Shown here: piece after piece, positions 1,398 to 36,878 of the stretch | Position numbering within the stretch: position 1 is the stretch's first letter | Layout of the letters: every line of letters begins with the position of its first letter | Source: a virus | Taxonomy: Duplodnaviria > Heunggongvirae > Uroviricota > Caudoviricetes | IMG/VR virus record: IMGVR_UViG_2526164631_000038 | Length of the DNA stretch: 43,688 nucleotides | Reading direction: 5' to 3' (one strand) | Position numbers and translations under genes: made by a program | Notes under the pieces: generated by a model | Seen by the model: only the letters and a program-made list of their open reading frames with translations | The model's database searches: none | What the model was told of the DNA's origin: nothing

Positions 1398-1952
1398 TCA
1401 TTTATCTCCGACTGGAAACTTCTTATACAAAGTCGATACGCCAACATCATAAATGATCGCCACCTTCTGGCGAGGAACTCCTGATGCAATTAATCGTCCG
1501 GCCTGTGCCCATTGTTCTGGTGTAAGTTTGGGACGTCGTCCACCAATTCGTCCCTGTGCGCGAGCAGCTTCCAGTCCTGCTTTTGTTCGTTCAACAATCA
1601 GTTCTCGTTCCATTTCAGCCAGGGCCCCCATCACATGAAAGAAAAAACGCCCCATCGGTGTGCTGGTATCAATAGCATCCGTCAGGCTGCGAAAATTAAC
1701 GCCACGTTCGCGCAACTCCTCAACCAGAATGACCAGATGCCGCATACTACGCCCCAGCCGATCCAGCTTCCAGACAACCAGAGTGTCACCTGCCGATAAT
1801 GTCCTGAGCAGTTTTTTCAGTCCCGGCCTTTCGGACTTTGTACCGCTTATCTTGTCTTCAAAAATCAGCTCGCATCCTGCACAGTTCAACGCATTACGTT
1901 GTAGATCGGTATTCTGGTCATTTGTTGATACGCGTACATAGCCAATAAGCAT
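1398..1952 (-). CDS. site-specific DNA invertase, serine recombinase of the Pin/Gin/Hin family
   Basis: Translation from MLIGYVRVSTNDQ... with catalytic-Ser motif and C-terminal HTH; 184 aa from the ATG at 1952, which has a GGGAGA Shine-Dalgarno. The longer 1988 start lacks one. Confidence 0.9.
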   Translation of the reverse strand: MLIGYVRVSTNDQNTDLQRNALNCAGCELIFEDKISGTKSERPGLKKLLRTLSAGDTLVVWKLDRLGRSMRHLVILVEELRERGVNFRSLTDAIDTSTPMGRFFFHVMGALAEMERELIVERTKAGLEAARAQGRIGGRRPKLTPEQWAQAGRLIASGVPRQKVAIIYDVGVSTLYKKFPVGDK

Positions 1953-2040
1953 GGTAGGTCTCCCTGACAAAAGCAGGAATGATGCCATTTGCTCGTTATT
2001 TCTGCATTTTCATAAACGTTGGTTTGGGAGAAGCGGCAAA

Positions 2041-2353
2041 ACGAAATGTGGGAACAGGGGAAAATCAGATACCTGATATGTCATCATATGCATCAGGTTC
2101 AGGCTGGCGAAAAATGCCAGATGGTTCAATTGAACAGTGGGGACGAATTAGTTTTCCTGGTGAACACGGGCCTGTATCCGCCAATGTTTCATTCCCAATT
2201 CCATTTACACAGACACCGGGCATTGTAATTGTGTGCGATGGTGGTTTCGGGGGCGGGAATATGTGGGGGGCGACCAACTGGAGCACTACCGGCTTCATAG
2301 CTCACTGCAATTATGGTCTTGAAGGTGGTGCGTTTTTCGCTAAGGGCTGGTAA
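2041..2353 (+). CDS. promoterless alternative tail-fibre C-terminal cassette (Sv'-like) inside the invertible segment
   Basis: Open frame without its own N-terminus. Encodes ...[12 protein letters not shown]..., whose NVGT block is homologous, in inverted orientation, to the NVGT near the C-terminus of the fibre gene at 3370..4215. Confidence 0.5.
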
Positions 2354-2796
2354 TGATGAAATATCTGTACGTAAACAACCTGGCATATCCTTACGAACTT
2401 CAGTCTCTTTATGTTGAAAAAGGTGAATGGCCTGAAGAAAAAGGTGTTGATATAGACGAAGTAATTTTCAGGGAATATTTCTATGATACACCACCAGAAG
2501 GAAAATACAGATGTGTCGGAGAGGATGGACTGCCTGCATGGGCAGATATTCCTCCACCAACACGTGAAGAACAAATTGCATCAGCCGAAACTAAAAAGCA
2601 GCAATTGATTAACCAGGCCAACGAATACATCAACAGTAAACAATGGCCAGGTAAAGCATCAATTGGTCGTCTGAAAGGTGAGGAACTGGCGCAATATAAT
2701 TTGTGGCTGGATTATCTGGACGCACTGGAACTGGTCGATACTTCCGGTGCGCCAGATATTGAATGGCCTACGCCTCCGGCAGTTCAGGCCAGATGA
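2353..2796 (+). CDS. tail fibre assembly protein, alternative copy (Tfa')
   Basis: 147-aa ORF; ATG overlaps the preceding stop (TAATG); C-terminal region typical of caudoviral Tfa chaperones; pairs with the Sv' cassette. Confidence 0.65.
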   Translation: MMKYLYVNNLAYPYELQSLYVEKGEWPEEKGVDIDEVIFREYFYDTPPEGKYRCVGEDGLPAWADIPPPTREEQIASAETKKQQLINQANEYINSKQWPGKASIGRLKGEELAQYNLWLDYLDALELVDTSGAPDIEWPTPPAVQAR

Positions 2797-3373
2797 CGTC
2801 CGGCGCTGTGCTGGTATCTGTTGCCGTCACCGCGTCAATGTAATCCAGCACAGCGTTAAGTCGGGTGTTTTCTGGCTGCGTCAGCTTCCGCCCAGCCTGT
2901 AATTTCAGTTGAATCAGACTAATGGAAGCCATTGCAGCATCAATCAGTGACTGACGCTGTGCTTCTGCCGCTTCGACTGCTGCGCTATGCTGTGCCTCAG
3001 TATCGGTCACCCATTTCTCACCATCCCATTTATCGTATGGCGTTAATGGAGCGATAGTGGTTGTATTTTCAGGGTAATCACCCGGAGCTGTGATTTCTTT
3101 TGATTCTCCTGTTTCAGTGCTATAGACCGTTTCACCGCGATGGTCTGGCACATATTCCCATGAGTTAAAATCTGCAGAACGGCAAATTGCATAACCAGCT
3201 TTATATGAGCCAGGAGCATCTAAACAGGAACATGCCGGGATACCGACACCCACAGCAAGATATTCAGTTGATGTGGAAATATATTCCCGTGTCTCACCAT
3301 CATAATTGTAAACGGTAATGTCTCCCGCCTTTGTGGTGATGAGTTCGCTATTTAATACAGCTTTATTCATCAT
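2768..3373 (-). CDS. tail fibre assembly protein (Tfa), currently expressed orientation
   Basis: 201-aa ORF directly downstream of the fibre gene; C-terminus resembles Tfa chaperones; convergent with Tfa'. Confidence 0.7.
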
Positions 3374-4215
3374 GCGGCCCTTACGATATAATTAAAAGCG
3401 ATGTTACGAGGACGAGTTTCTGTACCTACATTTTCACTAATTTCACCATAACGTTTAACACTACGAGAGCTAATAGCTCGTAGTGAGGAAGGCACATTAA
3501 GACCGGGTTCGTCCGTTTTAACTATTCCCCCGTCACCGTATGTAGCCAGTATTCCTGGGTTTACTCCTTCCCGTGCACTTCCTGCGGCGAGTCCGTCCCC
3601 TGTCCATAATTCCATATAGTGTGCATGGTCCAAAATTGTGTGTGGCTGCCAATTAAGCAAAGCGCGACCAGTATCAATCCCGCGACCGTCATCCCAGCCA
3701 CGAATAAATTCACCGCGTAAATCAGGCAATTTATTGGTCGGGTAAGCCTTTGCCAGTTCCGGGTATTCTTCAGCAGAAAAAGCCGCACCGTTGCATTTCA
3801 GCCAGCCTGTTGGCGGTGTGACTGAAGGCCACGGAACAGGCACACCAACAGGTAATGCAGAACCTTCTCCCAAACCAAGGTTTTCGAGAGCCGTTTGCAC
3901 AGTGCCATCCGATTTGATATCGCCAAACGGATTCTTGCGGCTCAGGTATTCAACAGCAAACCCCGATCCCAGCAATTCAACAAAACCGGGCAGATCACCA
4001 TTATCAAGCACATCCCGTTGCGTTTTGTCACTTACAAACTGGGCCAGAGCTGCAGCAATAAAGCTGGCCTGTCGAATGGCTTTGTTCACCTGCGCACTGG
4101 ATGCTTTCCCTGCTGTAAATCCGGATAAAAGCGCAGGCAACGCTTCCCATTCCTCCTGCGACATAACATTGGCATTTCGATCAGTTGCAAACGCTTTAAA
4201 GTCATTTTTCGCCAT
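3370..4215 (-). CDS. tail fibre protein
   Basis: Gly-rich beta-type sequence with a collar-like segment ([18 protein letters not shown]) and the C-terminal [16 protein letters not shown] typical of phage fibres; start MAKNDF at 4215 overlaps the upstream stop. Confidence 0.75.
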
Positions 4216-4895
4216 CAGAGTAATACTCCCCATGCTCCTACATCAAAACCACTGATGAATTCGTTATCCATATCAAAACCAAAAAATTTTGAGCCTTCCG
4301 ATGGGGTTTCCACCGAAGGAGTTTCAATGCCCCCCGCCCATACCCCGGCGGCTTTTACTGTGAGATACCCCTGTTTAATTGCCGCAATTAACTCACGCGA
4401 TACATCTGAAATATCAGTATCAGGAAAGACCCAGACCGATATCGTCATGTCCTGGTTATCGACTATCTGCATTCGCAGCCCGGATCCTGCTGTTGCCGCG
4501 TCAAGAATTGCCGGAAGCGAATCATTCCGTCCGTCCCAGTTATTAATCGCAATCTTCGCTTTAAGGATGACACGATAAGTTTCATCGCTGAGGTACATGT
4601 ATCCGGAATCAGGATCGTATGGTCCCTGCCATACACCCTGATCATATCCAAGCCCGTCGGTATCCCAGCTGAAATAAACACCTGAGATAGGCTGGCTGAC
4701 AACACGGCTACGTCCGATCCACAATCCCAGAATGTCAAGTTGCACACCAACCGCAGAGTCAATATCAAATGCAGTAATCAGCCCTCTGGTGGCCGCCGCA
4801 ACATCAATAAGCGGCCGGGTCATCAGATCAACATGTGCAAGAAATTTAGGTTTGGTGGCGTGGTAGTTCGTGATTAGTTCGGTGTATTTGCTCAT
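4215..4895 (-). CDS. baseplate protein (Mu gp48-like)
   Basis: 226-aa ORF between the baseplate J-like gene and the fibre gene, translationally coupled; position and size fit Mu gp48. Confidence 0.55.
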
Positions 4896-6091
4896 GACTC
4901 CACCGTTATAACGATATTTTCCGGGGTACAGGACGCAGATTCGTTGTATCTGATATCAATGTTTGATGACGACAAAGCCCCCGGAGATTTCCCAATCGTC
5001 AGTTCCTGAATATCGTAATAGCGTGCATTCCCGCCACTCACCACGCCAAGATTCGCCGGTGAGTAAATGCGACTTAAAAGGACCGAATCACCAATCATCA
5101 GACTATTGATATAGTCGGAAATAGCCTGCTGGATCTGCTGCCCTATCTGTGAGGTATAACCCGTAAAAACTTTTAATTTAATCCGGGCATAAACAGGCAC
5201 ATCACTGGAACGCGAGAATTTGATTACATGGGGATTGCCGTATTTATCCGGAACCGTAACGGATGTTGTACCGTGAGTGGCTGTCCCCTGGCCTTTATTC
5301 CCTCTGATAGCCTGAGCAATATCCATCACATCACCGCCATCCACAATTACAGCAACAGAGTGTGGCGGTAACCCGTTACCGTCCTCCGAACCAGTATCGT
5401 TTTCATAGAGTTTGTGGCGGGTTACACCGGTAACATTAGAAACAGCACCATCCAGTGCTTCAAATGGGGTTATTGATGGCAACGCAACACTTTGCGACTG
5501 GCGGATACGTAACTCCGCATCAGTTTCTGCCGGAGAGCCAACAGTAGCCGCAGCAGGATTAGTTACCGAAACCCAGCCACGGGTTGGCGTATTAATTTCA
5601 GTGATAGTTCCAGCCAGCGCCGCCACTGCACCACTGACGGAACATGTTGCGGTCGCCATCACTGTACCATCCACGCCGACCACCACTGAAGCAGGCAAAC
5701 GCCATATCACACTATTACTGTCTTTCACGCTGCCATTAATGATGGTTGTTCCGGCAGTTCCTGTAAGAAGCAAATCAACCGTAGAATTCGTCGCGCCTTT
5801 ACGTGAAATACCATTTATTTTCACGTTACTGGTCAGTGCGGCCCCATAGCCGGTTGCCGGTGAAAAACAGTTGTAGACAGTTATCGCAGTATTATTGGCA
5901 TCATGAATCGCCAGCGCCATCAGAGCCACCATCTGGCCGTCTTTACTATCCGGTTCGAGGTAGGCATCACTGCCATAAATCTGCTGAAAATAGCTAATCA
6001 GGGTGCTGAGTATCGTCTGATAATCAGGCGCACTGATCCCCTCCGCGGTTACCTTTGCAGATAAACCGAGAGAATCAAGGTTCAGAGCCAT
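4892..6091 (-). CDS. baseplate J-like protein (Mu gp47 / P2 gpJ family)
   Basis: 399-aa ORF with an N-terminus characteristic of Baseplate_J proteins as recalled; in conserved baseplate gene order. Confidence 0.7.
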   Translation of the reverse strand: MALNLDSLGLSAKVTAEGISAPDYQTILSTLISYFQQIYGSDAYLEPDSKDGQMVALMALAIHDANNTAITVYNCFSPATGYGAALTSNVKINGISRKGATNSTVDLLLTGTAGTTIINGSVKDSNSVIWRLPASVVVGVDGTVMATATCSVSGAVAALAGTITEINTPTRGWVSVTNPAAATVGSPAETDAELRIRQSQSVALPSITPFEALDGAVSNVTGVTRHKLYENDTGSEDGNGLPPHSVAVIVDGGDVMDIAQAIRGNKGQGTATHGTTSVTVPDKYGNPHVIKFSRSSDVPVYARIKLKVFTGYTSQIGQQIQQAISDYINSLMIGDSVLLSRIYSPANLGVVSGGNARYYDIQELTIGKSPGALSSSNIDIRYNESASCTPENIVITVES

Positions 6092-6444
6092 TACGCCTCC
6101 GATTTAACAGTCGTTATTCCATAGAGAGTGTCGATTTCAGCGGAAAACATGACACGTCGGGTCGTGGTATCCACCGTCGTATTGAAAGAGAGGATTGATT
6201 TAACGCCCCGCGTTTCGAGGATGCGCTTACGGATCGCCAGGTTGTAGGTTTCCGGCTTCTGCTTACCGAGCACAGACTGGATCCACGGGGTCCCTTCGGT
6301 GGTGTCGAGAAACCATTGCCCATACCACAATTCAAATCACGTTTTTACCGCCTGCGCCACGGCCTCCGGTGAGTTAATCAGCCAGGTGTCATCACCGCTG
6401 CCAAAGGTGTAATCGCCATCGGCGTCTTCACGTCTGTATCGCAT
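6091..6444 (-). pseudogene. small baseplate protein (Mu gp46-like) interrupted by an in-frame TGA
   Basis: ATG at 6444 overlaps the upstream stop (ATGA). Frame reads MRYRREDADGDYTFGSGDDTWLINSPEAVAQAVKT, then TGA at 6337..6339, then the same frame continues FELWYGQWFLDTTEGTPWIQSVLGKQ... to 6091. Confidence 0.6.
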
Positions 6445-7196
6445 CAGTTTACCCTATCGGTATTGCTTCCACCGCGCTGAACACCGCCATGAGTGTGCGT
6501 ATCATCGATTGGCTTGCCGTTAGCCTTCACGCTACCCAAAAACTCAACAGCACCAGTGATTTTTGAAGCCACACCAGAAACCACAGACCCCACCATGCCA
6601 CCCATCCAGGTTAACAGGCCATGAATGGTTACTTTCTCAGAAAAATCAGCCAGAGGGGCAACCACATCAAGACCACCCGGAGCGACAATTTTAATTTTCC
6701 TGGTATCAGGATTAAGCTCAAAATAGGTGCTGCCGTCGTCACTACGCAACTGTGTGGCACTGGTATTAATACCGCTAATCTTCCTCGCCTGCGACTGGGG
6801 ACCGACAATACAAAACGCATCCGATAAATCATGCATTCTGTCATCAACAGGCTCCTGTATCCCGCCGTTCTGCCACCAGAAATCAATACAACGATCGGCA
6901 AAAACAACAAGACACTCATCCCCGGCTTTAACCGGAAAAGTCAACGTACAGCCTCCGCCGCGCGGAAATACCACTGGCACATCCACCAGCAACGGGTAAT
7001 TTTTGGTAATGCGGTTACCGTCGTTATCCTTTTCAACCGAACGGATAGCTGGCTGCACAACCGCCGTCACCGCGTCGGGATCGAATGACTGAACAATGCC
7101 AGGCAAGGCGACACGGATCTGGTTCTTTGTGGTTTCCCGTTCAGATTTGAATGTTTCGGCAAGGTCGCCGCTGCGGGTCTGGTCAGATACTGCCAT
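6444..7196 (-). CDS. baseplate assembly protein V / spike (Mu gp45-like)
   Basis: 250-aa ORF; VVFPRGGGCTLTFPVKAGDECLVVF segment resembles the gpV OB-fold; in baseplate gene order. Confidence 0.7.
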   Translation of the reverse strand: MAVSDQTRSGDLAETFKSERETTKNQIRVALPGIVQSFDPDAVTAVVQPAIRSVEKDNDGNRITKNYPLLVDVPVVFPRGGGCTLTFPVKAGDECLVVFADRCIDFWWQNGGIQEPVDDRMHDLSDAFCIVGPQSQARKISGINTSATQLRSDDGSTYFELNPDTRKIKIVAPGGLDVVAPLADFSEKVTIHGLLTWMGGMVGSVVSGVASKITGAVEFLGSVKANGKPIDDTHTHGGVQRGGSNTDRVN

Positions 7197-7255: not shown

Positions 7256-7495
7256 TTACTGCTTGTTTGCTTCTAACGCTTCAGCTATTCGGCGAAGATA
7301 CTCATTGTTTTTAAATGAAACCATGATGCACTCAAAGAATATTCGGCAAAATACAGCACATAACAAAAGCACTAAAGCGCCAGCAGCCTTCCCATTAACA
7401 AACGTTATAATGGCGGCAACAACCAGAAGTAACATTGTGATGCCATACAGAACGTTGATGATTTTTGGAGTTATTAATTTATCAAATCCGAACAT
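7256..7495 (-). CDS. small integral membrane protein (moron)
   Basis: 79 aa with two hydrophobic helices (ITMLLLVVAAIITFV, GALVLLLCAVFCRIFF); no structural-gene character; followed by its own terminator. Confidence 0.6.
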   Translation of the reverse strand: MFGFDKLITPKIINVLYGITMLLLVVAAIITFVNGKAAGALVLLLCAVFCRIFFECIMVSFKNNEYLRRIAEALEANKQ

Positions 7496-7548
7496 GCGAC
7501 AAATTCCTTATCGTGAAAGTAGAAGTACCACATTATAATTACGAGTGA

Positions 7549-7890
7549 TTAATCAACAATCTTTTTGCATGGAAAGGAACCGATGATTTTCGGCGCATCC
7601 ATGCTGTTCTGCAGCAGTTGGACATTCAGGAATCGCGTTTCGGTACCAGGGCGACGAATGTATTCAAAGCCGTAGTTGTTACCGTCTTTGGCAGGCATAA
7701 GCCCCATGTCTACTTTCAAACCATTGGTACCCAGTTCGGTGATTTTTTGAGAGGTAACTCTTTCACCGTTGATTGTCGATAACTCGCCCTGGTTTGCAAC
7801 CATAGTGTAGCCACCGCATTTAACCGTGAAGCCATCCGCCCACGCGCTGCACGCAGAAAAGACAGCTAACAGAAAAATAATACCCCTCAT
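7549..7890 (-). CDS. secreted or lipoprotein-like small protein (moron)
   Basis: 113 aa; N-terminal signal peptide MRGIIFLLAVFSACSAWA; two Cys in the mature part; embedded between baseplate genes. Confidence 0.6.
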   Translation of the reverse strand: MRGIIFLLAVFSACSAWADGFTVKCGGYTMVANQGELSTINGERVTSQKITELGTNGLKVDMGLMPAKDGNNYGFEYIRRPGTETRFLNVQLLQNSMDAPKIIGSFPCKKIVD

Positions 7891-25915: not shown

Positions 25916-26458
25916 TCAAGCTATTTTTTGAGCAAATGATTCTCGCATGGGAATATATAGGGCATACTCAGCAACAGCCAACCAATTAGCAATTCGCTTT
26001 TCGCATGTGCTAAAACACCACTCAGGATGTGCATCATTTAGCAATTCAGCCATTTTGCGCTTAGTCATCCCCCGTCCTTCATACCGTTGCCGGAGGACAC
26101 TAATCAATCCAGGATGCTCTGCCAGCACCTCACTTATGACTCTATCAATACATAACGCCTCTGCATCAGTACAATGCGCCAGCCAGGTCTTTTGCTTGCC
26201 ATTGATCATCTCTCGCAAAAACGCTTCCAGCTCAGGTTTCTCTATTCCCGCTTTTTTCATCCTGCGCAGGGCTTCATTGACGGCTGTTTTCGTCAATTTT
26301 TTGGATGCCAGCAACTGGTTAAACATATTTCCCGTCTTACCGCCGCCAATATACGACCAGCGCCCCCACATGCGCAGTTTTCCCTGAATCCAGACACTTT
26401 CCAGCGTGGTGAGACGAAGGTGTTCCCCGCTTTTGCCTGTATTTGTTGGGTAAATCAT
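25916..26458 (-). CDS. late-gene antiterminator Q
   Basis: 180 aa from MIYPTNTGK (GGAAGG Shine-Dalgarno); positioned after ybcO/ybcN-like genes and before tR' and lysis genes. Confidence 0.6.
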   Translation of the reverse strand: MIYPTNTGKSGEHLRLTTLESVWIQGKLRMWGRWSYIGGGKTGNMFNQLLASKKLTKTAVNEALRRMKKAGIEKPELEAFLREMINGKQKTWLAHCTDAEALCIDRVISEVLAEHPGLISVLRQRYEGRGMTKRKMAELLNDAHPEWCFSTCEKRIANWLAVAEYALYIPMRESFAQKIA

Positions 26459-26745
26459 AAATAACCTTCCTTTCTCCAGATTTCTTGTGTGCGAAAAACA
26501 CCTTCTGCATACATCAGGCGTAATTCTTCTTTGGTGTAATCGCTGGTTTTTACCCGCCCGTCGATTAAATCGTGGCATGAGCTACAGGCAATCGCTGCCT
26601 GCATATCGTGTGGTTTTGTCGCTGTTCCGCACGTCCCCGCCAGCCTGTAATGCGCCAGCACAGAAGTTTCGGGATTGTGATTGCAGTAGCCAGGGATTCT
26701 GACCTGGCACATCTGGCCCCGCGCTGCTTTACGTAAACTCACCAT
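26455..26745 (-). CDS. YbcO-like protein with Cys cluster
   Basis: LRKAARGQMCQVRIPGYCNHNPETSVLAHYRL...IACSSCHDLID resembles DLP12 YbcO as recalled. Confidence 0.65.
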   Translation of the reverse strand: MVSLRKAARGQMCQVRIPGYCNHNPETSVLAHYRLAGTCGTATKPHDMQAAIACSSCHDLIDGRVKTSDYTKEELRLMYAEGVFRTQEIWRKEGYL

Positions 26746-27344
26746 TACGCAAACTCCAGTAGCTGCGCGGCCACATTTTCGACTTCCTCCGGAGAGGAAA
26801 ATTTACGGAACAGGATCCAGTTCCACAGCACATTCAGTACAGATTTATAAACCTGCTGAAACTCGGTTTCGTCCATGTTCGCAAATGCGATAGATTTTGC
26901 CCTGCGCCCGCGGCTACCGTCTGGATAAATATGCTCGGTGTAAAATCCGGCCTGAATGGTTACCCACTCGCGGAAAGCCTCAAACGACTTTAGCAATGCC
27001 GTATCCCGGGTTCTGCGTGTCGCAACTGTATTCAGATATTGCTCTGCGGCTTCGCTCAGAGCTGGCGTATGTTCCCGACCTACTGATTCGCACAGGTACT
27101 CAACGAAGCCTGATACCAGTTCTCGTTCTCGAGGCGTGATCACCCCACCGCTCGGAGTCCAGTAATCGAATCCCAGTTGCAGGAGTTTGAAAAAACGCTT
27201 GTGAAATGCGTAGTTACGCACACGCTTAAAGTCTGCGTGTATCCACTCACCTATTTTGATTTGATGCAAAAAATCGCAACTCTCCGGCGTCGCCGGGAGA
27301 AGTAATCCGGAAGAGGTTTGTTTGACCAGTTGTATATGCGCCAT
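26745..27344 (-). CDS. YbcN-like protein
   Basis: 199-aa ORF upstream of the ybcO-like gene, same order as DLP12 ybcN-ybcO-Q; similarity recalled, not searched. Confidence 0.55.
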   Translation of the reverse strand: MAHIQLVKQTSSGLLLPATPESCDFLHQIKIGEWIHADFKRVRNYAFHKRFFKLLQLGFDYWTPSGGVITPRERELVSGFVEYLCESVGREHTPALSEAAEQYLNTVATRRTRDTALLKSFEAFREWVTIQAGFYTEHIYPDGSRGRRAKSIAFANMDETEFQQVYKSVLNVLWNWILFRKFSSPEEVENVAAQLLEFA

Positions 27345-27415
27345 CGTAGTTCTCCGCTGGCGCAGTAGAATGGGTGTTCAGCCCGTTATGTAGTATACCA
27401 GAATTAATGCCAATA

Positions 27416-27667
27416 CTAACATGATGCTCTGACTCGCAATTCATCCAGCAGTTTATCATTTCCCATAATGTCACTTACCCTCATCGGTAAAAAAATTGCC
27501 TTTCGACCATTACGATACATCATTGATTTTGGGGTTTCAGGGAAGTAATCCATTTCGACTATAACTGACAGGTCATCACGACGTATGACTGCGTATTTGC
27601 TACTAAATAGTCTCTTTATTTTTTCCACGATGCCTCCAGGTTTATAAGTACAAACGGTTATATCCAC
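27416..27667 (-). CDS. hypothetical small protein (doubtful)
   Basis: 83-aa ORF whose first codon is GTG without a Shine-Dalgarno; AT-rich. Confidence 0.25.
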   Translation of the reverse strand: MDITVCTYKPGGIVEKIKRLFSSKYAVIRRDDLSVIVEMDYFPETPKSMMYRNGRKAIFLPMRVSDIMGNDKLLDELRVRASC

Positions 27668-27810
27668 ATAGAGACAAAAATATTAATCTGAAAAATATTT
27701 ATTTCACGCCGTATATTTGATTGTTTAATGTGCAGGTACAATGACTTTTATTTTTTGTTGTGTATATAATCAAATATATGGTTATTTTTCACCCTGCGCA
27801 TTCAGCGCGC

Positions 27811-27834
27811 AACAAAAAACCCGCCGAAGCGGGT
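27811..27834 (-). terminator. rho-independent terminator of the hok transcript
   Basis: Minus-strand hairpin CCCGCTTCGGCGGG followed by TTTTTTGTTG, about 70 nt after the hok stop. Confidence 0.7.
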
Positions 27835-27905
27835 TAAGTGCGGGTGCGTTGAGGATGCCTGACACATCAGAGGTGGCGGGAGATTACTCTCCCGCCTAGT
27901 CACTC

Positions 27906-28061
27906 TTACTTCTCAGATTCGTAGTCCACGAAGACAGCAACCTCCGTCTGGCCGGTTCGGATTCGTACCTCGCAGAGGTCTTTCCTCGTTACCAGTGCCG
28001 TCACTATGACGGTTAAACAGATGACGATAAGGGCGATTAACATCGCCTTTTGCTGCTTCAT
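27906..28061 (-). CDS. hok: Hok/Gef-family membrane toxin
   Basis: 51 aa MKQQKAMLIALIVICLTVIVTALVTRKDLCEVRIRTGQTEVAVFVDYESEK, nearly identical to HokD/RelF as recalled. Confidence 0.85.
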   Translation of the reverse strand: MKQQKAMLIALIVICLTVIVTALVTRKDLCEVRIRTGQTEVAVFVDYESEK

Positions 28062-28618
28062 AGCCTGCTTCTCCTTGCCTTTCGGCACGTAAGAGGCTAA
28101 CCTACATTTGTGAGACATAGATTGGGCCTCAGATTAATGTTAAGCGTCTTGTAGGACGCGTAATGTTAACTGGGGCTTTTCTCTATCTGCCTTTTGGTGT
28201 TCATGCCTGAGGCAGATAGCCTCAAGCACCCGCAGCAATTCTAACTATCCAATAGATCAATGCCAACTTCTTTTCCTGCAACATCTCTCATCATAAGTGA
28301 CCAAAATTCATCCAATCAGCACAAAAGAAACATTTAAAGCGTGAATGCTACCGAACGTTCATTTCAATTACATCGTTTTGATTTTTAACAGTTTTTACCT
28401 CAACAAATCAAATGGCATTAGCATTCATCATGGAAGAAAGACTGATAAAAATGATCATTTTCAATGACTTATGATCACACCGGGTATTGCCAAGTCATTC
28501 CTTTTACGCCAGGATACCCACAAGTGAGTAGTCGAGGAGAGTTTGCCAATTTTTGCGATATAAATTTCAATGTCCGAAGAACCATTAATTGTTAATTGAT
28601 TCTGTATAAGGTATTAAC

Positions 28619-29716
28619 ATGACAATTTCATATATTCCTATTCTGAAAGCGAAACGTTCTGAGTTATCAGCTTTATCGCAGCTATCCATTGAAAAGAAAT
28701 CAAAAATTTTGCCATTACTCGAAATTGAACCAGTGCCAATTGACCCTGATTCAGGTATTGCCTTAAAGAGTTATAACGAGACTCTTATAGAGTTCGGAAA
28801 GAAAGTCTCAAAATCTTGCTCAGATATGCAAGGTGTTTATATTGATGGATTATTAATTGAAGAGCATTTTATTTCTCCTGAAGATCATTACCCTATAATA
28901 AATGCGGTTAATCAAGTTAGAGATATGGGGATAAGAGTTATTCCTGTCAGTTCACCAACTCGCCCATCTAACTATAAAGGAGCGATTGATGAATTAATGC
29001 AGAATGAAATATGCTTGAGATTAACCACGTTAGATCTGGTTAACCCACAATTAATAACGCATTACATTAATCATCTGGGAATTCCTTTATCAAATATTGA
29101 TATAATTATTGACTTAAGAGATGAGTTAACCGAGGATAAACTTAATTCCGGCGAACTATATACTTTGGCAATGGGATTGATAAACAATCTGGCGCACCTC
29201 AATGAATACAGAAAAGTGATTCTTTCTGGGGGTTCATTTCCTACAGATCTCAGTGATATTTCTGTTGGTCTATATTCTCAACCTCGAATCGAGTGGATTT
29301 TATGGCAGAGTTTAATGAATAGAAAAGAACTTGCCAGAAATGTGATTTATAGTGATTATGGAGTACAGCACCCCGACTTTAATAGGCTTTCGACGCGATT
29401 CCCTAGCGTATCTGCCAGCGTCAGATACTCTGGAGATAATGACTTTTGGGTATTTCGAGGAAGAGTAGCTAATCGCTTTGGTTATGAACAATATGGTAAA
29501 CATAGTGAGGATATTCTTGCTCATCGAGAATATTCAGGGCCTACATTCTGTGCGGGAGATAGAGACATAGAATATTATGCAAACGAGTATCAAGCCTACA
29601 AAGCCAATCCCTCTGGTAACTATAAATTTGGTAGCCCAGAGGTATGGCGTAGGATTGGGCAAAACCATCACATAACTAAGGTTGTTGAGCAACTCGCCAC
29701 TCTTTACGGGCTTTAA
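28619..29716 (+). CDS. uncharacterised 365-aa protein, Beta-protein / sce7725-like; first gene of a candidate defence pair
   Basis: Translation MTISYIPILKAKRSELSAL... recalled as the N-terminal signature of the Beta_protein / sce7725 family (recalled, uncertain); AT-rich; 500-bp leader; 3' end overlaps the convergent partner. Confidence 0.75.
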   Translation: MTISYIPILKAKRSELSALSQLSIEKKSKILPLLEIEPVPIDPDSGIALKSYNETLIEFGKKVSKSCSDMQGVYIDGLLIEEHFISPEDHYPIINAVNQVRDMGIRVIPVSSPTRPSNYKGAIDELMQNEICLRLTTLDLVNPQLITHYINHLGIPLSNIDIIIDLRDELTEDKLNSGELYTLAMGLINNLAHLNEYRKVILSGGSFPTDLSDISVGLYSQPRIEWILWQSLMNRKELARNVIYSDYGVQHPDFNRLSTRFPSVSASVRYSGDNDFWVFRGRVANRFGYEQYGKHSEDILAHREYSGPTFCAGDRDIEYYANEYQAYKANPSGNYKFGSPEVWRRIGQNHHITKVVEQLATLYGL

Positions 29717-30254
29717 GTTTAACTCGAACAGCTTCACGAAGCTCGCCAACATCCATACTATTGGCGAGTTTTGACCATAAGACGCGTTTAGGTTTATTTT
29801 TCAAATTCTGTAGCTCCCCTACATCACTTAATAGGGAAAGCAATTCATCTTTCCAAAGAAGCATTGTTAAGGAAAGTTTGTCCACTTGTGGATTCAACTT
29901 GCTAGTTCGAATTGTTTTTAAATGGATACCTTGCCGTGCACCTTGCGTAACTTGCTTTATCCCCCACCATGATGGAACTATGCTTAAAGCATCATAAAGA
30001 TGGCAATCAGAGACAACCAACGTTACTTTATCCATCACTGATGAGTAATGTTGCACCTGCGCTGGTAATCTGAGCAAGTTATCACTTTTGCTCTTCAACT
30101 CATAACCATGTATAAGCCCATTGATCACTGCTATATCAGCTCTGCTAGCCCCCAGATTCATCGTAAACTCATCAATGATTAGGGTGTCAGGATCTTTATG
30201 ATGATCTCTCAAAATCTTGGCATGCACAGCCTTTCTTACATCAATGTCTCTCAT
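29676..30254 (-). CDS. uncharacterised 192-aa protein, sce7726-like with PD-(D/E)xK-like motif; second gene of the candidate defence pair
   Basis: LIIDEFTMNLGASRADIAVINGLIHGYELKSKSD has the D...(D/E)xK arrangement of restriction-endonuclease-fold nucleases; convergent with and overlapping the Beta-like gene. Confidence 0.75.
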   Translation of the reverse strand: MRDIDVRKAVHAKILRDHHKDPDTLIIDEFTMNLGASRADIAVINGLIHGYELKSKSDNLLRLPAQVQHYSSVMDKVTLVVSDCHLYDALSIVPSWWGIKQVTQGARQGIHLKTIRTSKLNPQVDKLSLTMLLWKDELLSLLSDVGELQNLKNKPKRVLWSKLANSMDVGELREAVRVKLKARKEWRVAQQP

Positions 30255-30525
30255 ACCATAGTTGCGCTTTCATCGACTCTCTCAAGCCATGATTCTATAT
30301 CATGGTTCGCATGAATGCCATTTGATATGACCAGTGGTTAAACATTGCACAGAAAAGTGGATGTGTATTTTAACAAAAGCAATGACGGCTAACCATGTTG
30401 GTATGTCGATAAAATGTTTCAACGTAAGCATTATCTGTTCCGCCCTTTCGGGCGGCCTCCTGATGTTCTGAGGGTGCAGAAATCCCTCCGGTTAAGGATT
30501 AAATTTTTAACAGTGCTAAATTTAA

Positions 30526-30882
30526 TTATTCAGTTCTGGATTTTGTCACCCTGCGTATCCGTGCTTTCGCATTACGCTCAATCTGAATTAGCTTTTCTAT
30601 ATTTTTTCGCCTTTCCTGTTCCTCCTGGCGCAATAGTTTTACATCATCTGCCAGTCTGGTTTCTCTTTTCGCCACAGAGAGCATCCAGTCAAATGGCTCC
30701 ACAACTGCACCGCAGATTTTACAGCGGACCTGACGCTCTTTTTCGTCAACCCGGACAGAAGCGTGATGGCAGTATGGTCTTTCCGATGGCTCATAAAGAA
30801 AATTAACCTGATTACGTGGGTCATCCTCTTTTACCGGAAATAAAACAATATTACTTAACTCATCTTCTGGTTTTATTTCCAT
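30526..30882 (-). CDS. hypothetical protein with zinc-ribbon-like Cys/His cluster
   Basis: 118 aa from MEIKPEDE (AGGAGAGGAG Shine-Dalgarno); PYCHHASVRVDEKERQVRCKICGAV; basic coiled-coil C-terminus. Confidence 0.55.
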   Translation of the reverse strand: MEIKPEDELSNIVLFPVKEDDPRNQVNFLYEPSERPYCHHASVRVDEKERQVRCKICGAVVEPFDWMLSVAKRETRLADDVKLLRQEEQERRKNIEKLIQIERNAKARIRRVTKSRTE

Positions 30883-30939
30883 GCTCCTCTCCTTTGATGC
30901 GAATGCCAGCGGCAATTGAAGCCTGATAGCTAATTTCAC

Positions 30940-31362
30940 TCACAGCACCACCTCCTGAAAACTCCCCTGATAAAACGCCAGCACTCGCTGCATAACCTCA
31001 CTATTCCGGCACTCGCGACAGATTATGTTCTGTCGTCTGTTGTAACGACGTATTTCTCCGTCTGGTAATGACCAGATAAGGTCAGGATCAACCACAACCG
31101 GTTTCTTCACCTTTGCCCTTGATAGTTTTTTGCGGGCGTTTTGCCAGTCTTTACGCGCCTGCTCAGACGGGAATAATCCGTAGCCAGAATTGTAAACATC
31201 ACCACTGGCGACCAGTTCTCTGGCGAGAGTGCTTATGTAATACCTTGATGCACCGGTTTTAGCCTCCAGAGCCCGTAACGTCTCGCGACCGCTCAGACGT
31301 ACAAGTTCAACAACCTGCCCTTTAATTTTTTCCCGCTCTTCTGGTGTAAATACTTTTGCCAT
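30940..31362 (-). CDS. hypothetical early protein
   Basis: 140 aa from MAKVFTPEEREK (GGAGG Shine-Dalgarno); early-right operon. Confidence 0.5.
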   Translation of the reverse strand: MAKVFTPEEREKIKGQVVELVRLSGRETLRALEAKTGASRYYISTLARELVASGDVYNSGYGLFPSEQARKDWQNARKKLSRAKVKKPVVVDPDLIWSLPDGEIRRYNRRQNIICRECRNSEVMQRVLAFYQGSFQEVVL

Positions 31363-31377
31363 AGGTGCCTCCGGCAA

Positions 31378-32139
31378 TCACTTTTCCGATGCAACACAGC
31401 GAGAAGAATCAGTAATCTGTCGAACAATATCCCGGTGCTTGTTCAGTTCCCGCAGCGCAGCACAGACTCGTTCCCACTTCTGGACATGACTTTTCGCCCG
31501 ACGCAGTTCGCGGTTTGCCATATGCAGCGATGGTAAAACCAGGTCATCCGCTCGCGTTTCAGTAAACGATGGCAGCGACTGCACAATGTCCGCCACAGTT
31601 TCTGTTTTAATATCTTCCTGTGTTGCAGCCTCACGTACTGGTAACGCAACACCTGCGGGCTGAGGAAAGGCCTTACCATCAGTTTCCGCTACCGATGCTG
31701 CTTTCGGCTCTGCTGGTAAATTATCGCCCGGTATGCAGTAACGAAATTTACCGCCCTGATTTACGCGAATCAGACGACCTTTGCTGATTGCCATTGCCAG
31801 CGTTGAAGCCACTTTGCGTGATGTGGTACCAAACAATGTAGCCAGCTCATCAGCCGTTTGTGGTCCGCGTTGTTCAATCGTCGCGGTTAAATCGCACTCT
31901 GAGATTTTCGCTACTGTTGCTGTGGTGGTTTCTTCCGGCAGTTCTGCCTGCGCTGGCTGTTCCTGCTGAACGTTGTTATCAGCCACACGCCAGGTGTACG
32001 CGCTTTTATCAACAAAACCAGCCTTTTTCAGTTCCCATAGTTCGTTCAGCACTTCTTCACGACTGATATCAAGTCGCGCAGCCAGCTCTACCGACGTGGC
32101 TTTTCCCATTGCTTTCAGTGCGTCAAAAACAGTCTCCAT
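31378..32139 (-). CDS. winged-helix DNA-binding early protein
   Basis: 253 aa from [30 protein letters not shown] (GGGAGA Shine-Dalgarno); two wHTH-like repeats. Confidence 0.55.
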
Positions 32140-32161
32140 TAAATTTTTCTCCCGGTAAAAA

Positions 32162-32908
32162 TTACTTCGCAATTCCTGGCTGGACGACATTCGGACGCCA
32201 GCTCTCCCAGTTAAAATTCACCCAACACCCGCCGTTCATGGTCATGCGATCCATAATCCTCTCGCCGAGCAATGTTTTCATGGCCTCATAGTTCAGGTTT
32301 GTCAGCATTCCCACGCTACGCATCGACGCTGTCCGTCGATCAATAATCTGGTGCAGTACCACCTGCTCGTTTTTCGTCTCGCGCTGAATGCCAATTTCAT
32401 CAAGAACCAGCAGATCCACTTCGCACAGCTCCCGCAAAAATTTTTCGCCTGACTGCCCGTCGTCATAGCTGGCGTGCAGGGCGCTCATAACATCAGCCAC
32501 GGTAACCACAATCACTGTCTGACCGTCTTTCAGCAGGCGATTCCCGATAGCTGCCGCTAAGTGATTCTTCCCGGTACCAGGTTTTCCGCTGAACGCAAAA
32601 TTTGTACACCCGGTCATCAGTTCATCGGCGATGGATTTCGCCTGGCTTAACGCGTATCGCTGCCCTTCGTTCTGCACCTGGTAATTCGCAAACGAGCATT
32701 TGCGGTGCAACGGCTGGATGCCAGAGCGATTCAGGATTTTTTCCACCCGCAACTGACGATTCAGGCGGTTGATCTCCTCGCAACGTTTCTGGCCTTCAGC
32801 AAGTTGCCACTCGCGCCACTCCGCAACCGTTCTGAATGGGGCGGTTACATGTGGTGGGGTCAGTCTGCGGATACGCTCCAGAACGCCGCCTGTCGCAATA
32901 TTTTTCAT
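32162..32908 (-). CDS. DnaC-like helicase loader
   Basis: Walker [18 protein letters not shown], Walker [10 protein letters not shown] and overall near-colinearity with E. coli DnaC as recalled. Confidence 0.85.
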
Positions 32909-32914
32909 GGTCTG

Positions 32915-33709
32915 TTACCCCCTGAAGCCTGGCGGGATCGCACTGTCCGGCAACGAGACGGTGTTAACCTGTCGGAGCAACGTCTCAGGCCGAACACCTT
33001 TCGGTGCGAACAAGCCCTGGTATTCATTGGCGATGCTGTGTCGAATCACCTGCTCAGGTGTAAAACCCTGCTGACGGAATTTTTCCAGTTCCCGTATCGC
33101 CCCGTTAGCGCCCTGCTCCGTTCGAATCGGTTTTCGCAATGCCTGTCTGAACCGGACCCACTCATGCCAGAGTGTTTCCGGCAACCAATCAGGCAGCTCA
33201 ATAGCCTCCGGCTCGAATTTTTTAGACGCTCGTTTTTGGCGAGGGGGATTTAGGGGGAGATCAGTATTTAGATCTTCCTCTTCCTCTTCCTCTTCCTCTG
33301 GTAACGCTTTTTGATCCGTTTGTGTAACGCTGGCAGCGTTACCTTTTCGTTTCAGTTCGCGTATTTTTGTAACTCGCTCGTTTGTAACCGCCCGTTTTTT
33401 AGAGCTTTTTCCGTTATGACGTTCAAAGTTAGGTAGAGAAAGCCCAACGTCATTTTCGACCAGCCATCCAACCTGAATTAACGCATCAGCAAAACCAGCC
33501 ATAAAAGTGATGCGATCTATTGCACTTTTTGTAACGCCGCGAGCGTTACAATCTGCATTACCGTCTATCATTTGTTGATCCGCCCATGCCCAGAAGCGAA
33601 TAACCTTCCCTAATGCGGCATCTGGATCAATATTCAGAATCTCAGCAAGCCTGAATATTTCCGGCTTATCCGGCGTAATAACCTCGAGCTTTATCCAGTT
33701 TGAAGCCAT
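32915..33709 (-). CDS. replication initiator / replisome organiser (lambda O-like role, Rac YdaU-like)
   Basis: 264-aa ORF immediately upstream of the dnaC-like gene; internal poly-Glu linker; contains palindromic repeats (see findings). Confidence 0.6.
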   Translation of the reverse strand: MASNWIKLEVITPDKPEIFRLAEILNIDPDAALGKVIRFWAWADQQMIDGNADCNARGVTKSAIDRITFMAGFADALIQVGWLVENDVGLSLPNFERHNGKSSKKRAVTNERVTKIRELKRKGNAASVTQTDQKALPEEEEEEEEDLNTDLPLNPPRQKRASKKFEPEAIELPDWLPETLWHEWVRFRQALRKPIRTEQGANGAIRELEKFRQQGFTPEQVIRHSIANEYQGLFAPKGVRPETLLRQVNTVSLPDSAIPPGFRG

Positions 33710-33786
33710 TTGTTTTCACCTTGTAACGCTCGCAGCGTTACATTTAACTGATACCGAACAAAACAATCCGGCACGATTAATTTCAA

Positions 33787-34209
33787 TCAATGCACTACGA
33801 CAGAATCGCCGGGCGACCCACCACCGCTGAAATGTGCTTTCCGGTAAACGGCCTGGACTGCATCATCATGCGCATCAATTGCCGTACTCAACGCTTCCTG
33901 CGCCGCCAGTAATGCACGGCGTTCCAGGGTATCGAAGATGCAGAGTCGGTGACGCAGCTCGCGCGGAAGAATTGCCAGAACCGCAGGGATCAGTTTCTGA
34001 ATTTTTTCCCTTTGCGCTTTCGTTTCACCTTTCAACCAACGGTGATAGATATTCTGCTGATTGTTCCAGTCCTTGCCTGGTACAAGGGGCAATTCGCCGC
34101 CCCCCTGGCGCAGATATTCTTCAGTAATTGCGTTAGCGACCCACGCCTGCCCTTTTTCGGCTGCCAGGGCTAACAACACTGATTCGATGTGCTCATGCCT
34201 GATTTTCAT
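33787..34209 (-). CDS. CII-like lysogeny regulator (Rac YdaT-like)
   Basis: 140-aa ORF directly downstream of cro, overlapping its stop; sequence recalled as close to Rac YdaT. Confidence 0.5.
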   Translation of the reverse strand: MKIRHEHIESVLLALAAEKGQAWVANAITEEYLRQGGGELPLVPGKDWNNQQNIYHRWLKGETKAQREKIQKLIPAVLAILPRELRHRLCIFDTLERRALLAAQEALSTAIDAHDDAVQAVYRKAHFSGGGSPGDSVVVH

Positions 34210-34448
34210 GAATCAACCGCTCCTATGCTGTTTTCGCTATGCTTACCGTCTGGGGGGAATACATCGTCAAGTCCACAATGAGTGCCAAGCCGATTAAGGG
34301 TAGAAACAATTTTTCTGCACTCCTCTAGTCCAGGGGTACGAAAATTTGCTTCGTAATTTGCCAGTCGGCTTTGTATCCACCCTAACTGAACAGCAAGTTG
34401 TCTTTGAGACAGCCCAAGCTGTTTTCGATATGTTGAAATTTTGTTCAT
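34206..34448 (-). CDS. cro: Cro-like HTH repressor (XRE family)
   Basis: 80 aa; HTH LGLSQRQLAVQLGWIQSRLANYE; GGAGG Shine-Dalgarno; divergent from the cI-like gene. Confidence 0.7.
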   Translation of the reverse strand: MNKISTYRKQLGLSQRQLAVQLGWIQSRLANYEANFRTPGLEECRKIVSTLNRLGTHCGLDDVFPPDGKHSENSIGAVDS

Positions 34449-34465
34449 TGAAAACCTCCGATGAC

Positions 34466-34497
34466 AATTTTAAACACACCTTGTGTTATATGGTCAA
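34466..34497 (-). promoter_or_regulatory. pR-like promoter with embedded operator
   Basis: Minus strand TTGACC-17-TTTAAA upstream of cro; palindrome AACACACCTTGTGTT (34473..34487) lies in the spacer. Confidence 0.55.
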
Positions 34498-34544
34498 GCT
34501 GTTTTGTGTTTTATATAAATCACGATTCGTGATACAAGGATGCA

Positions 34545-34964
34545 ATGGAAAAAGAAAACGAAAAAATTGCCGCTAGTAGGCTCAATGACAAAATTGCAAT
34601 GCGTCTTAAAGAGCGCAGGCAGAAGCTTGGTTTATCTCAAGGAAAACTTGCTGAAATCTGCGGATGGACGCAATCGCGTATAGGTAACTATGAGGCGGGC
34701 AGCAGAAATGTTGGAGTGCATGACGCTGTCGTATTGGGAAAGGCACTTGGCATATCTCCTCCTGAGCTCCTATTTGGAGAACAGGAATCTTCTGAATTGT
34801 GGTTAAATGAATCCCAACGAAAACTTCTTGAGTTGTTTAACCAGCTACCGGGCTCAGAACAACAACGAATGATTGAGCTATTTGAAGTCCGGCTAAAAGA
34901 AATCGATGAGTATGTAGAAAAATATTTGAGAGGCAGGCTTAAAGATAATCCCCCACCGGAGTAA
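34545..34964 (+). CDS. cI: CI-like repressor (XRE HTH, short form without a recognisable autocleavage domain)
   Basis: 139 aa; HTH LGLSQGKLAEICGWTQSRIGNYE; no Ser/Lys peptidase-type C-terminal domain; divergent from cro. Confidence 0.7.
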   Translation: MEKENEKIAASRLNDKIAMRLKERRQKLGLSQGKLAEICGWTQSRIGNYEAGSRNVGVHDAVVLGKALGISPPELLFGEQESSELWLNESQRKLLELFNQLPGSEQQRMIELFEVRLKEIDEYVEKYLRGRLKDNPPPE

Positions 34965-34994
34965 TGATCTTGCTATCACAGTAATATGCCAATC

Positions 34995-35019
34995 AGCCCG
35001 CTATCAGCGGGCTTTTTTG
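34995..35019 (+). terminator. rho-independent terminator after the repressor gene
   Basis: AGCCCGCTATCAGCGGGCT hairpin followed by TTTTTTG. Confidence 0.75.
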
Positions 35020-35047
35020 TACCATCATCATATGACACTCACCACAA

Positions 35048-35088
35048 AACACATATCGTGTTGACATAAGAAAACGCATTGTGTTTAA
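35048..35088 (+). promoter_or_regulatory. pL-like promoter with operator
   Basis: TTGACA-17-TTTAAT; palindrome AACACATATCGTGTT (35048..35062) overlaps the -35 and shares its AACAC/GTGTT arms with the pR operator. Confidence 0.55.
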
Positions 35089-35263
35089 TAAGCATATCCA
35101 AACAACGCCCCACCAGAGAACGGCAGGACAATACCTCGAGTTATCCAGCCACTGAACAGGGCTAAGTAGCCAGCCTGAGGCATACGAACATGACGGCAGT
35201 TGTTGATTGATACAAAGCGCAGTAGATAAAACGTTCCGCCACCCGGCGTTAAGGGGAAAAAAG

Positions 35264-35482
35264 ATGGTTGGTGAAGATCTGGTTGTTATTAACGGTCAAT
35301 TGTGCAGCAAAGATGTGGCAGCCATGCTTATTAGCAAGGTTCTTCCAACTGTGCTGGATGTCATTGCAGAAAAAGTAAAGGCTGGTCGTCCAGACAAGGA
35401 AGTTGAAGAGGCGGCAAAAACAGTTGTTCATGCCGCTACAGAAGCAATTATTTTGAAGAGCCTAGTTTCGCCCAAGCCTTAA
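35264..35482 (+). CDS. small early-left protein (72 aa)
   Basis: ATG preceded by AAGGGGA; first ORF after the pL-like promoter. Confidence 0.4.
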   Translation: MVGEDLVVINGQLCSKDVAAMLISKVLPTVLDVIAEKVKAGRPDKEVEEAAKTVVHAATEAIILKSLVSPKP

Positions 35483-35642
35483 GTGAATCGGCGCTTTTTT
35501 TAGCATCACGTTCATTGAGTAGTGACAAAAACTCATTCTCAGCATTCTCGATTTCCGAGAAAAATTCTTGATGAGTTGTTTCTCGCTGCGATCTGATGCT
35601 GAAAGCTAAAGCAAGTAGCCAGGCTTTGTCTTTATTATCCAT
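35448..35642 (-). CDS. small protein (64 aa) antisense to the early-left operon
   Basis: ORF with weak Shine-Dalgarno; convergent with and overlapping the preceding gene. Confidence 0.3.
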   Translation of the reverse strand: MDNKDKAWLLALAFSIRSQRETTHQEFFSEIENAENEFLSLLNERDAKKSADSLKAWAKLGSSK

Positions 35643-36037
35643 CGGAATACCTTATTACTGGTTGTGTGAGAACTCCAGTATACCACCGAGCCTGAAGTGG
35701 TAAAAAGACAGGCGCACAACACGAAGGCGCATTTCCGGTATTCATAAAGAGTCGGTCTTGTCTGTTAAATTTAAATGGTGGGAGTGCGCCTCCGGTTGTA
35801 AATAACGACATTGCTATGTGTAGTCTTTGGCGGCATCAGTTCTACTCCGTGGCTGCCCTGTCGCCCCTTTTTAAAGTGAATTTTGTGATGCGGTGAATGC
35901 GGCTAAGCGCACGCGGCACAGTTAAAAGCATCAGTGTTATGGGTGGATTATCCGGCGTTAATTGTTAACTGGTTAACGTCACCTGGAGGCACCAGGCACC
36001 GCATCGACAAAATTCATTTGTAAAAATGGAGATAATT

Positions 36038-36259
36038 ATGATTGCTCATCACTTCGGAACTGATGAAATACCACGTCAGTGTGTGACCCCTGGCGATTAT
36101 GTTCTTCATGAAGGTCGGACATATATCGCCTCGGCAAACAATATTAAAAAGCGAAAACTTTATATTCGTAGCCTGACTACAAAAACATGCATTTCTGACT
36201 GCATGATTAAAGTCTTCCTCGGTCGTGATGGTTTACCTGTAAAGGCGGAGTCATGGTAA
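36038..36259 (+). CDS. small early protein, 73 aa; candidate KilR-like cell-division inhibitor by size and position
   Basis: GGAG Shine-Dalgarno before the ATG at 36038; same length and position as kilR in Rac. Sequence identity not verified. Confidence 0.4.
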
Positions 36260-36502
36260 TGACTAAGAAATAAAATGTGCTTATCACCTTTGCAATAAAG
36301 AAATTGAAGAAAGCAAAATCATTACAAGACCACTTCATTTCATGCGTGGAGTTATACCAACGACGGAAATGAAAAAATATTGTAGTGAAAGTTGTGCCGA
36401 AAAAGACCAGATGGCACACGAACTTTAATTAACTGACTATTCGAAACTGAATTTATGCCAGCAATGGCAGGGATTCGCTCAACCTTAATTAAGGAGAAAA
36501 AC

Positions 36503-36778
36503 ATGATTACCAGTTATGAAGCCACTGTTGTAACTACTGATGACATTGTTCACGAGGTTAATCTGGAAGGAAAGCGTATTGGCTACGTGATTAAAACAGA
36601 AAATAAAGAAACCCCATTCACTGTGGTTGATATCGACGGTCCATCAGGCAACGTTAAAACACTTAACGAAGGCGTCAAAAAAATGTGCCTGGTGCATATC
36701 GGAAAGAATCTGCCCGCAGAAAAAAAAGCCGGATTTCTGGCAACTCTGATTGCAATGAAATTAAAAGGTGAAATCTGA
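36503..36778 (+). CDS. small early protein, 91 aa (RacC-like position)
   Basis: AAGGAGAAAAAC Shine-Dalgarno; immediately upstream of the RecE-like gene. Confidence 0.45.
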   Translation: MITSYEATVVTTDDIVHEVNLEGKRIGYVIKTENKETPFTVVDIDGPSGNVKTLNEGVKKMCLVHIGKNLPAEKKAGFLATLIAMKLKGEI

Positions 36779-36878
36779 AAGAAATAGCCTGCGTATGGCG
36801 CAGGCTATGAACAGTGTGTATCCGGCAAGATTATTCACTGAACAAACGAATTTTAATCTGAGTTGAGGTTAAAAAACA

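Follow-up and report, generated by a model that had tools for sequence, protein, structure and literature searches.

A premature TGA in the tail-sheath-initiator gene of an Escherichia coli prophage and its probable consequence for tail assembly

The small baseplate gene described here, which is carried by a prophage of E. coli, is interrupted by an in-frame TGA at codon 36. The reading that we propose, and to which we give a probability of about 0.93, is that this TGA represents a recent loss-of-function allele of the tail-sheath-initiator gene, which probably blocks the autonomous assembly of the contractile tail. The prophage (~42 kb) is integrated between yebY and pphA/yebW and is contained in the 43.7-kb stretch of DNA that was analysed, which extends from yebY to pphA/yebW and is hereafter called the window. 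The pseudogene conclusion results from the nucleotide comparison with near-identical intact alleles and from the clear match of the protein to solved structures, and from these we infer the tail phenotype. A preliminary description of this DNA had proposed, among other explanations, a nonsense mutation making the prophage tail-defective; the CGA to TGA change relative to the intact alleles and the pseudogene call made by PGAP support the first half of this proposal, and the second would be its expected outcome. The feature is an ordinary recent pseudogenisation, already flagged by the RefSeq annotation.

The interrupted frame (6444..6091, minus strand) is made of 35 sense codons, the TGA at 6339..6337, 81 sense codons and a TAA, that is, 117 sense-codon positions and a stop, and the TGA is the reverse complement of the 'tca' present on the plus strand at 6337..6339. 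Its translation reads MRYRREDADGDYTFGSGDDTWLINSPEAVAQAVKT, a stop, FELWYGQWFLD...VKSEA and the final stop. The ATG of the gene (6444..6442) shares its A with the TGA stop of the upstream 250-aa spike gene (TGATG) and, at the other end, the last A of the TAA (6093..6091) doubles as the A of the ATG with which the downstream 399-aa baseplate-J gene opens (TAATG). The preliminary description had placed a TGA after codon 35 of a frame whose ATG is coupled to the upstream stop, and had seen in this frame a single coherent small protein. The coordinates and the position of the stop proved exact on translation, the overlap with the spike gene is present, and relatives that are 99.6% identical carry an uninterrupted 117-aa ORF that differs by 1 nt. 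The two halves that flank the TGA are one gene and not a chance reading. The features of the region are collected in Table 1.

Table 1. Features of the interrupted gene and of its immediate neighbours (window coordinates)
Feature	Position	Strand	Basis or remark
DUF2612/Phage_Wedge1 gene	4215..4895		
Downstream baseplate-J wedge gene	4892..6091	-	PF04865 7.2e-15
Sheath-initiator (baseplate) gene, 117 codons, now a pseudogene	6091..6444	-	Translation; intact allele in relatives 1 nt away
Remnant 79-codon ORF opening at TTG (codon 39), spans the core domain	6091..6330	-	ORF list and sequence
Premature stop TGA, codon 36	6337..6339	-	From CGA (Arg), C to T transition at window 6339
Remnant ORF, 35-aa N-terminal peptide, the expected translation product	6337..6444	-	ORF list
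Upstream spike gene, N-terminal domain and GpV apex motif	6444..7196	-	PF18352 2.9e-44, PF18946

The nature of the mutation emerges from the comparison with the closest relatives. A megablast search of 5426 complete E. coli genomes, with the 801 nt from 5900 to 6700 as the query, gave matches in 348 of them. The best matches were O111:H2 strain 12A (100%) and FDAARGOS_1059 (99.9%), and in both the 354-nt gene bears the PGAP/RefSeq label of a pseudogene with an 'internal stop'. The next-best genomes, 99.6% identical over the query, encode the intact 117-aa protein WP_001270633.1. Alignment of the window gene with this intact allele, which is found in O103:H2, gives 99.7% nucleotide identity with 1 difference in 354 nt, the sole difference being a T in place of a C at gene nucleotide 106; codon 36 is CGA in the intact allele of O103:H2 strain 129 and of strain EL361. 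The phages vB_EcoM-606R2, -689R2 and -611R5 are 97.4% identical to the window over the same query; a literature search returned nothing on these closest isolated phages (vB_EcoM-606R2). In the intact-allele prophages and in the three phages the gene has the same neighbours as in the window, but its codon 36 is CGA (Arg) and it is annotated as complete, whereas the window has TGA.

The TGA allele is rare. When the complete E. coli genomes (n=5426) were searched with a 41-mer centred on the variant base, a design in which every 28-nt megablast seed must include that base, 2 genomes matched exactly with T and 19 with C. A 35-mer pattern searched in IMG/VR gave 1 match for T and 110 for C, and the exact 28-mer of the T allele had no match in the GTDB species representatives or in the JGI metagenomes. 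Among the full-length copies of the C allele that were examined, 94 of 94 are uninterrupted 117-codon ORFs. The intact gene exists in IMG/VR as 59 DNA haplotypes, whose variant alleles comprise 46 synonymous changes over 84 sites and 21 nonsynonymous changes over 267 sites (pN/pS ~0.14). The uninterrupted copies and the low pN/pS therefore indicate that the intact gene is under purifying selection and that TGA is the derived and rare state. Over 5.5-40 kb the copies of the T allele show an identity of 100% or close to it, a sign of a young clonal lineage. Two extra substitutions were seen in T-allele copies, both of them synonymous: codon 73 AAG to AAA in FDAARGOS_1059 and codon 42 GGG to GGA in a copy on a second haplotype (L018, discussed below). 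The probability that both are synonymous under neutrality is ~0.06, but 2 substitutions are too few events to mean much, also as a measure of constraint downstream of the stop.

Sequencing or assembly error, which the preliminary description had listed, would mean that the true base is C and that the gene is intact. The T is a single-base difference from the intact allele, and the window contains two 1-nt homopolymer differences from the other assemblies of the same prophage, so that its sequence is not beyond doubt everywhere. However, the T is common to the window, 12A and FDAARGOS_1059, three sequences set apart by an inversion, indels and a SNP. The window and 12A represent one prophage in two assemblies, between which 2014..3883 is inverted and two 1-nt differences occur; in FDAARGOS_1059 this prophage occupies the same site and shows one more SNP and two indels in homopolymers. 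At least 8 other named NCBI or Logan assemblies or runs, obtained on different platforms, share the T, which, unlike the typical long-read error, is a substitution outside any homopolymer. By look-up, the exact 35-aa product has been called in 42 blocks, on at least 24 contigs of public assemblies, with sources that include NCBI drafts, four NCTC long-read assemblies and two SRA-derived Logan assemblies; codon 36 is TGA in all 10 of the retrieved loci that carry this product. Lying outside a homopolymer and reproduced across platforms, in independent assemblies that differ from one another elsewhere, the T is therefore a real allele, and an error at this base is extremely unlikely.

The same CGA to TGA change at codon 36 was found on a second prophage haplotype, ~3% divergent from the first (L018:3001-3354, Logan SRR15731923). 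This copy differs from the window at six other places in the gene, is 97.0% identical to it over 3.3 kb of flank and has upstream cargo genes unlike those of the window. The CGA parent haplotype of the window allele (L055, L080, L109, L114) differs from it at position 106 only, and the nearest CGA relative of L018 (L039) differs from L018 at position 106 and at one synonymous site. Around the stop, the nearest variant sites are gene positions 30 and 111, which would limit a tract transferred by recombination to less than 81 nt; compared with such a short conversion tract, a second independent C to T event is the more parsimonious. Only 15 transitions in the gene can create a stop, and this change is among them; its occurrence on two haplotypes is somewhat unexpected for a random knockout. 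Could a stop at codon 36 be favoured, either because silencing of the virion is selected while the other prophage genes are kept, or because a leaky UGA or reinitiation at the UUG throttles tail assembly? We consider this very improbable. L018 was found by searching for exactly this 35-aa product among 153 billion gene positions, those of Logan assemblies of public sequencing runs included, and such an ascertainment is both a sufficient explanation of the recurrence and a simpler account of the pattern than a favoured stop. The L018 copy is probably a recurrent mutation found through ascertainment, and a minor matter.

The searches for the identity of the protein were made with the 117-aa sequence in which the CGA had been restored. 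It matches PHROG 120, a baseplate wedge subunit, at 4.4e-37 and, in a phmmer search of the PDB, the sheath initiator Pam3 gp21 (7yfz_X; E=5.5e-12, residues 12-112). The other sheath initiators of the PDB that it matches are 9zd7_K (2e-07), XM1 gp15 (7kh1, 3.2e-07) and 9ndy (6.6e-07) and, more weakly, 9cuy and 9mjn (both ~2e-05) and phi92 gp139 (8e-05). The similarity to Pam3 gp21, XM1 gp15 and phi92 gp139 covers residues 12-112, and the solved homologues are single chains of 117-125 aa, against 117 aa here, which align across the position of codon 36. Arg36 is aligned with an Arg in Pam3 gp21 and with a Lys in gp87 of 9zd7, and sits in a conserved segment, EAV.Q..K.R..L..G.WFLD. By homology, the protein is the tail-sheath initiator of a simple baseplate of the Pam3/XM1/phi92 type. 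This identification relies on PHROGs and the PDB, whereas the local Pfam hmmscan gave no family for the 117-aa or the 79-aa form even at E<=10 and the NCBIfam scan of the repaired protein gave no match. Precomputed annotations do record PF10934 (Sheath_initiator) on 84-aa and 60-aa C-terminal fragments (L017, L019), so that the two sets of Pfam results disagree. The RefSeq names of the identical intact protein in different genomes are 'hypothetical protein', 'thioredoxin domain-containing protein' and 'contractile injection system sheath initiator'.

The gene had been labelled gp46-like in the preliminary description, and this label holds for the position but not for the sequence. Mu gp46 occupies the equivalent slot, between a V-like spike gene and a gp47-like baseplate-J gene, is also a small baseplate protein and shows a loosely similar W-x-G-x-W/D...G...W motif. 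However, PF07409 matches Mu gp46 (2.8e-37) and not the window protein, BLASTP between the two gives E=0.9, and the remaining tail module of the window prophage is Pam3/phi92-like and not Mu-like. As for GPW_gp25 (PF04965; T4 gp25/P2 gpW), this sequence-level comparison gave no Pfam match at E<=10. We therefore replace the gp46-like label by that of sheath initiator.

The neighbourhood of the gene is that of a contractile-tail module. The sheath (DUF3383) and tube (DUF3277) genes lie upstream of the baseplate genes, which follow in the order Dit-like tube initiator, Pam3_gp18 plug, 353-aa hub, two small cargo genes and spike, and then, after the spike, sheath initiator, baseplate J, Phage_Wedge1 (DUF2612) and fibre; this order is drawn partly from precomputed Pfam annotations on related contigs. 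It corresponds, as judged from these annotations, to the layout of a minimal myophage baseplate. The sheath-initiator gene sits between the spike and the baseplate-J/wedge genes, the same position as that of the Pam3 gp21 type in Pam3-like modules. The difference is that the window copy is cut at codon 36 and so has no complete ORF for the sheath-contacting core domain; it is a pseudogene of the sheath-initiator family and not a functional member. The baseplate-J protein of the window is intact and identical to WP_001197085.1 of the relatives. Inside the module, between hub and spike (7256..7890, minus strand), two small non-structural genes encode a 113-aa protein with a signal-peptide-like N-terminus (7549..7890) and a 79-aa DUF4282 membrane protein (7256..7495). 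Relatives have at this spot unrelated 184-aa and 56-aa proteins (L002, L003) or a DUF2335 protein (L018), and it is a variable cargo (moron) slot.

Might the TGA be decoded rather than terminate translation? In a programmed recoding, selenocysteine would be inserted at the UGA, or tRNA-Trp or a suppressor would read through it, and the full-length protein would be made by design; the preliminary description had mentioned readthrough of the stop. UGA is the leakiest stop codon in E. coli and the most prone to near-cognate readthrough, so that a trace of full-length protein with Trp at position 36 is conceivable, and both the presence of the TGA on two haplotypes and the few, all synonymous, substitutions past the stop are in keeping with recoding. 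Against this, the 60 nt that follow the UGA have an MFE of -10.8 kcal/mol, whereas the shuffled sequences average -16.3 (z=+1.87), and 195 of the 200 shuffles fold more stably. Folding of 66 nt around and after the UGA gave no SECIS-like hairpin adjoining the stop, Rfam at E<=10 gave no credible match and only a spurious archaeal snoRNA (E=4.1), and ARAGORN found no tRNA, suppressor included, in the window. The base after the stop is U (UGA-U), and a U as the fourth base gives efficient termination in E. coli. The stop is not conserved, since CGA stands at codon 36 in 110 of the 111 copies in IMG/VR and in all the other complete genomes that were examined, and the solved homologues have Arg or Lys at the aligned residue, not Cys, Sec or Trp. 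A bacterial selenoprotein gene was rejected on the missing SECIS hairpin, the missing Rfam match and the Arg/Lys of the homologues, and programmed readthrough on the absence of the stop from essentially all relatives. Neither being supported by these observations, recoding by design is a very improbable explanation.

The gene might also have become split in a functional manner, with reinitiation at the UUG downstream of the stop and reassembly of the 35-aa and 79-aa fragments into a working initiator. The TTG lies in frame, 6 nt past the TGA, and bacterial ribosomes are known to reinitiate at start codons close to the stop at which they have terminated; a gene caller chose this same TTG in L017, where it opens an 84-aa product whose 3' end is shifted by an indel. 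However, the break falls inside the predicted first helix (EAVAQAVKT/RFELWYGQWF) rather than between domains, residues 36-38 would be missing, and the TTG has no properly spaced Shine-Dalgarno sequence, an AGGCGG-like motif being found ~16 nt upstream. By look-up, the exact 79-aa product starting at the TTG is not on record with either L or M as its first residue. No split homologue was seen: tblastn found homologues in 656 phage records, in 571 of which a single place in the record accounts for at least 80% of the protein, and the 94 C-allele copies are all single ORFs. Reassembly from two fragments is, in our judgement, most unlikely. As to the two parts being normally separate genes, an arrangement that the preliminary description had named as one that would overturn its reading, nothing beyond the stop itself suggests it; in all relatives the gene encodes a continuous protein of ~117 aa and the solved homologues are single chains spanning the position, which leaves this arrangement a vanishingly small probability.

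The proposed consequence of the loss-of-function allele is the following. One C to T transition turned codon 36 from CGA (Arg) into TGA, and translation would end after 35 residues, within the predicted first helix. The resulting peptide would be without ~77 of the ~101 residues that align to the solved sheath initiators, the C-terminal part included, which in Pam3 provides the beta-strands for polymerisation of the first sheath ring; of the stretch aligned with Pam3 gp21 (residues 12-112) only residues 12-35 are kept, and the peptide cannot hold the sheath-contacting core. In Pam3, sheath growth starts at the gp21 hexamer, whose beta7-beta8 strands make the first sheath handshake complete, and the helical bundle of the wedge is clasped by gp21 (PMC9942802). 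Each baseplate needs six copies of the initiator. The prophage would probably still be capable of excision, replication, lysis and head filling, but would not make a functional contractile tail on its own. In strain 12A, where the gene is present only once, 65 of the 66 prophage features are intact and the sheath-initiator gene is the only pseudogene; together with the truncated initiator, this suggests a prophage that is likely inducible and lytic but defective in tail assembly. The premature stop would also uncouple the translation of baseplate J, and a mild polar effect may follow; such polarity is probably partial, because the baseplate-J gene keeps its own GGAGG 4 nt ahead of its ATG.

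The allele resembles the nonsense and frameshift pseudogenes of decaying prophages, in which one inactivating point mutation likewise strikes an essential virion gene and is labelled 'internal stop' by PGAP. The window prophage is otherwise complete, as judged from the 65 of 66 intact features in 12A, and decay has therefore only just begun. FDAARGOS_1059 has a second related prophage (L131, NZ_CP066032.1 2617720-2622760) with the intact WP_001270633.1 and with baseplate-J and DUF2612 (Wedge1) proteins identical to those of the window prophage. In that strain, this intact copy might conceivably complement the defective one in trans or repair it by gene conversion.

Several other features of the prophage deserve description. 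The element is a mosaic: its early region (~26000..43000) is Rac-like, with recE, recT, ralR, kilR, ydaT, ydaV and a hok/gef toxin gene, and its late region is a Pam3/phi92-style myovirus module. The segment 2014..3883 is a 1.87-kb invertible tail-fibre segment bounded by 20-bp inverted repeats (2014..2033 and 3864..3883) and adjoined by the Pin recombinase gene pinE (~1398..1952, minus strand). Its orientation in the window is opposite to that in 12A and FDAARGOS_1059, and the fibre ORF encodes 287 aa in the window orientation (3370..4233, minus strand) and a 223-aa gp53-like protein in 12A. This inversion looks like ordinary host-range switching of the Pin/Gin type, and probably explains the extra noisy ~21-kb contigs of two NCTC assemblies (L011, L012).

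At 36259..36273 (plus strand) the window has one A fewer, the deletion falling after 36270 (GAAA-TAAAATG against GAAAATAAAATG in 12A and FDAARGOS_1059), and the missing A cuts a YdaE-family ORF that overlaps the kilR stop to MTKK followed by a stop; the deletion is either genuine, and then a second inactivating mutation in this strain, or a sequencing error within the homopolymer. At 43092 the window has A6 where 12A and FDAARGOS_1059 have A7, in the intergenic region that separates yebY from the integrase gene, close to one end of the prophage. A convergent overlapping pair of genes at 28619..30254 (both strands) encodes a 'beta family protein' (365 aa) and a 'sce7726 family protein' (192 aa), whose PADLOC matches are PD-Lambda-2_C (2.8e-41) and 'cll' (2.4e-28), short of a complete PD-Lambda-2 set; the pair is a possible anti-phage defence cassette borne by the prophage.

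In conclusion, our observations matter little beyond annotation. The recurrence of the stop on a second haplotype is a minor curiosity, of consequence only if this site proved to have an excess in a systematic survey. For O111:H2 strain 12A and its close relatives, our results show that a complete-looking prophage is probably unable to make infectious particles alone. This is relevant to the software that scores prophages as 'intact' and to the prediction of transduction or lysogenic conversion from sequence, for a one-base knockout in a structural gene of 117 codons is easily missed.
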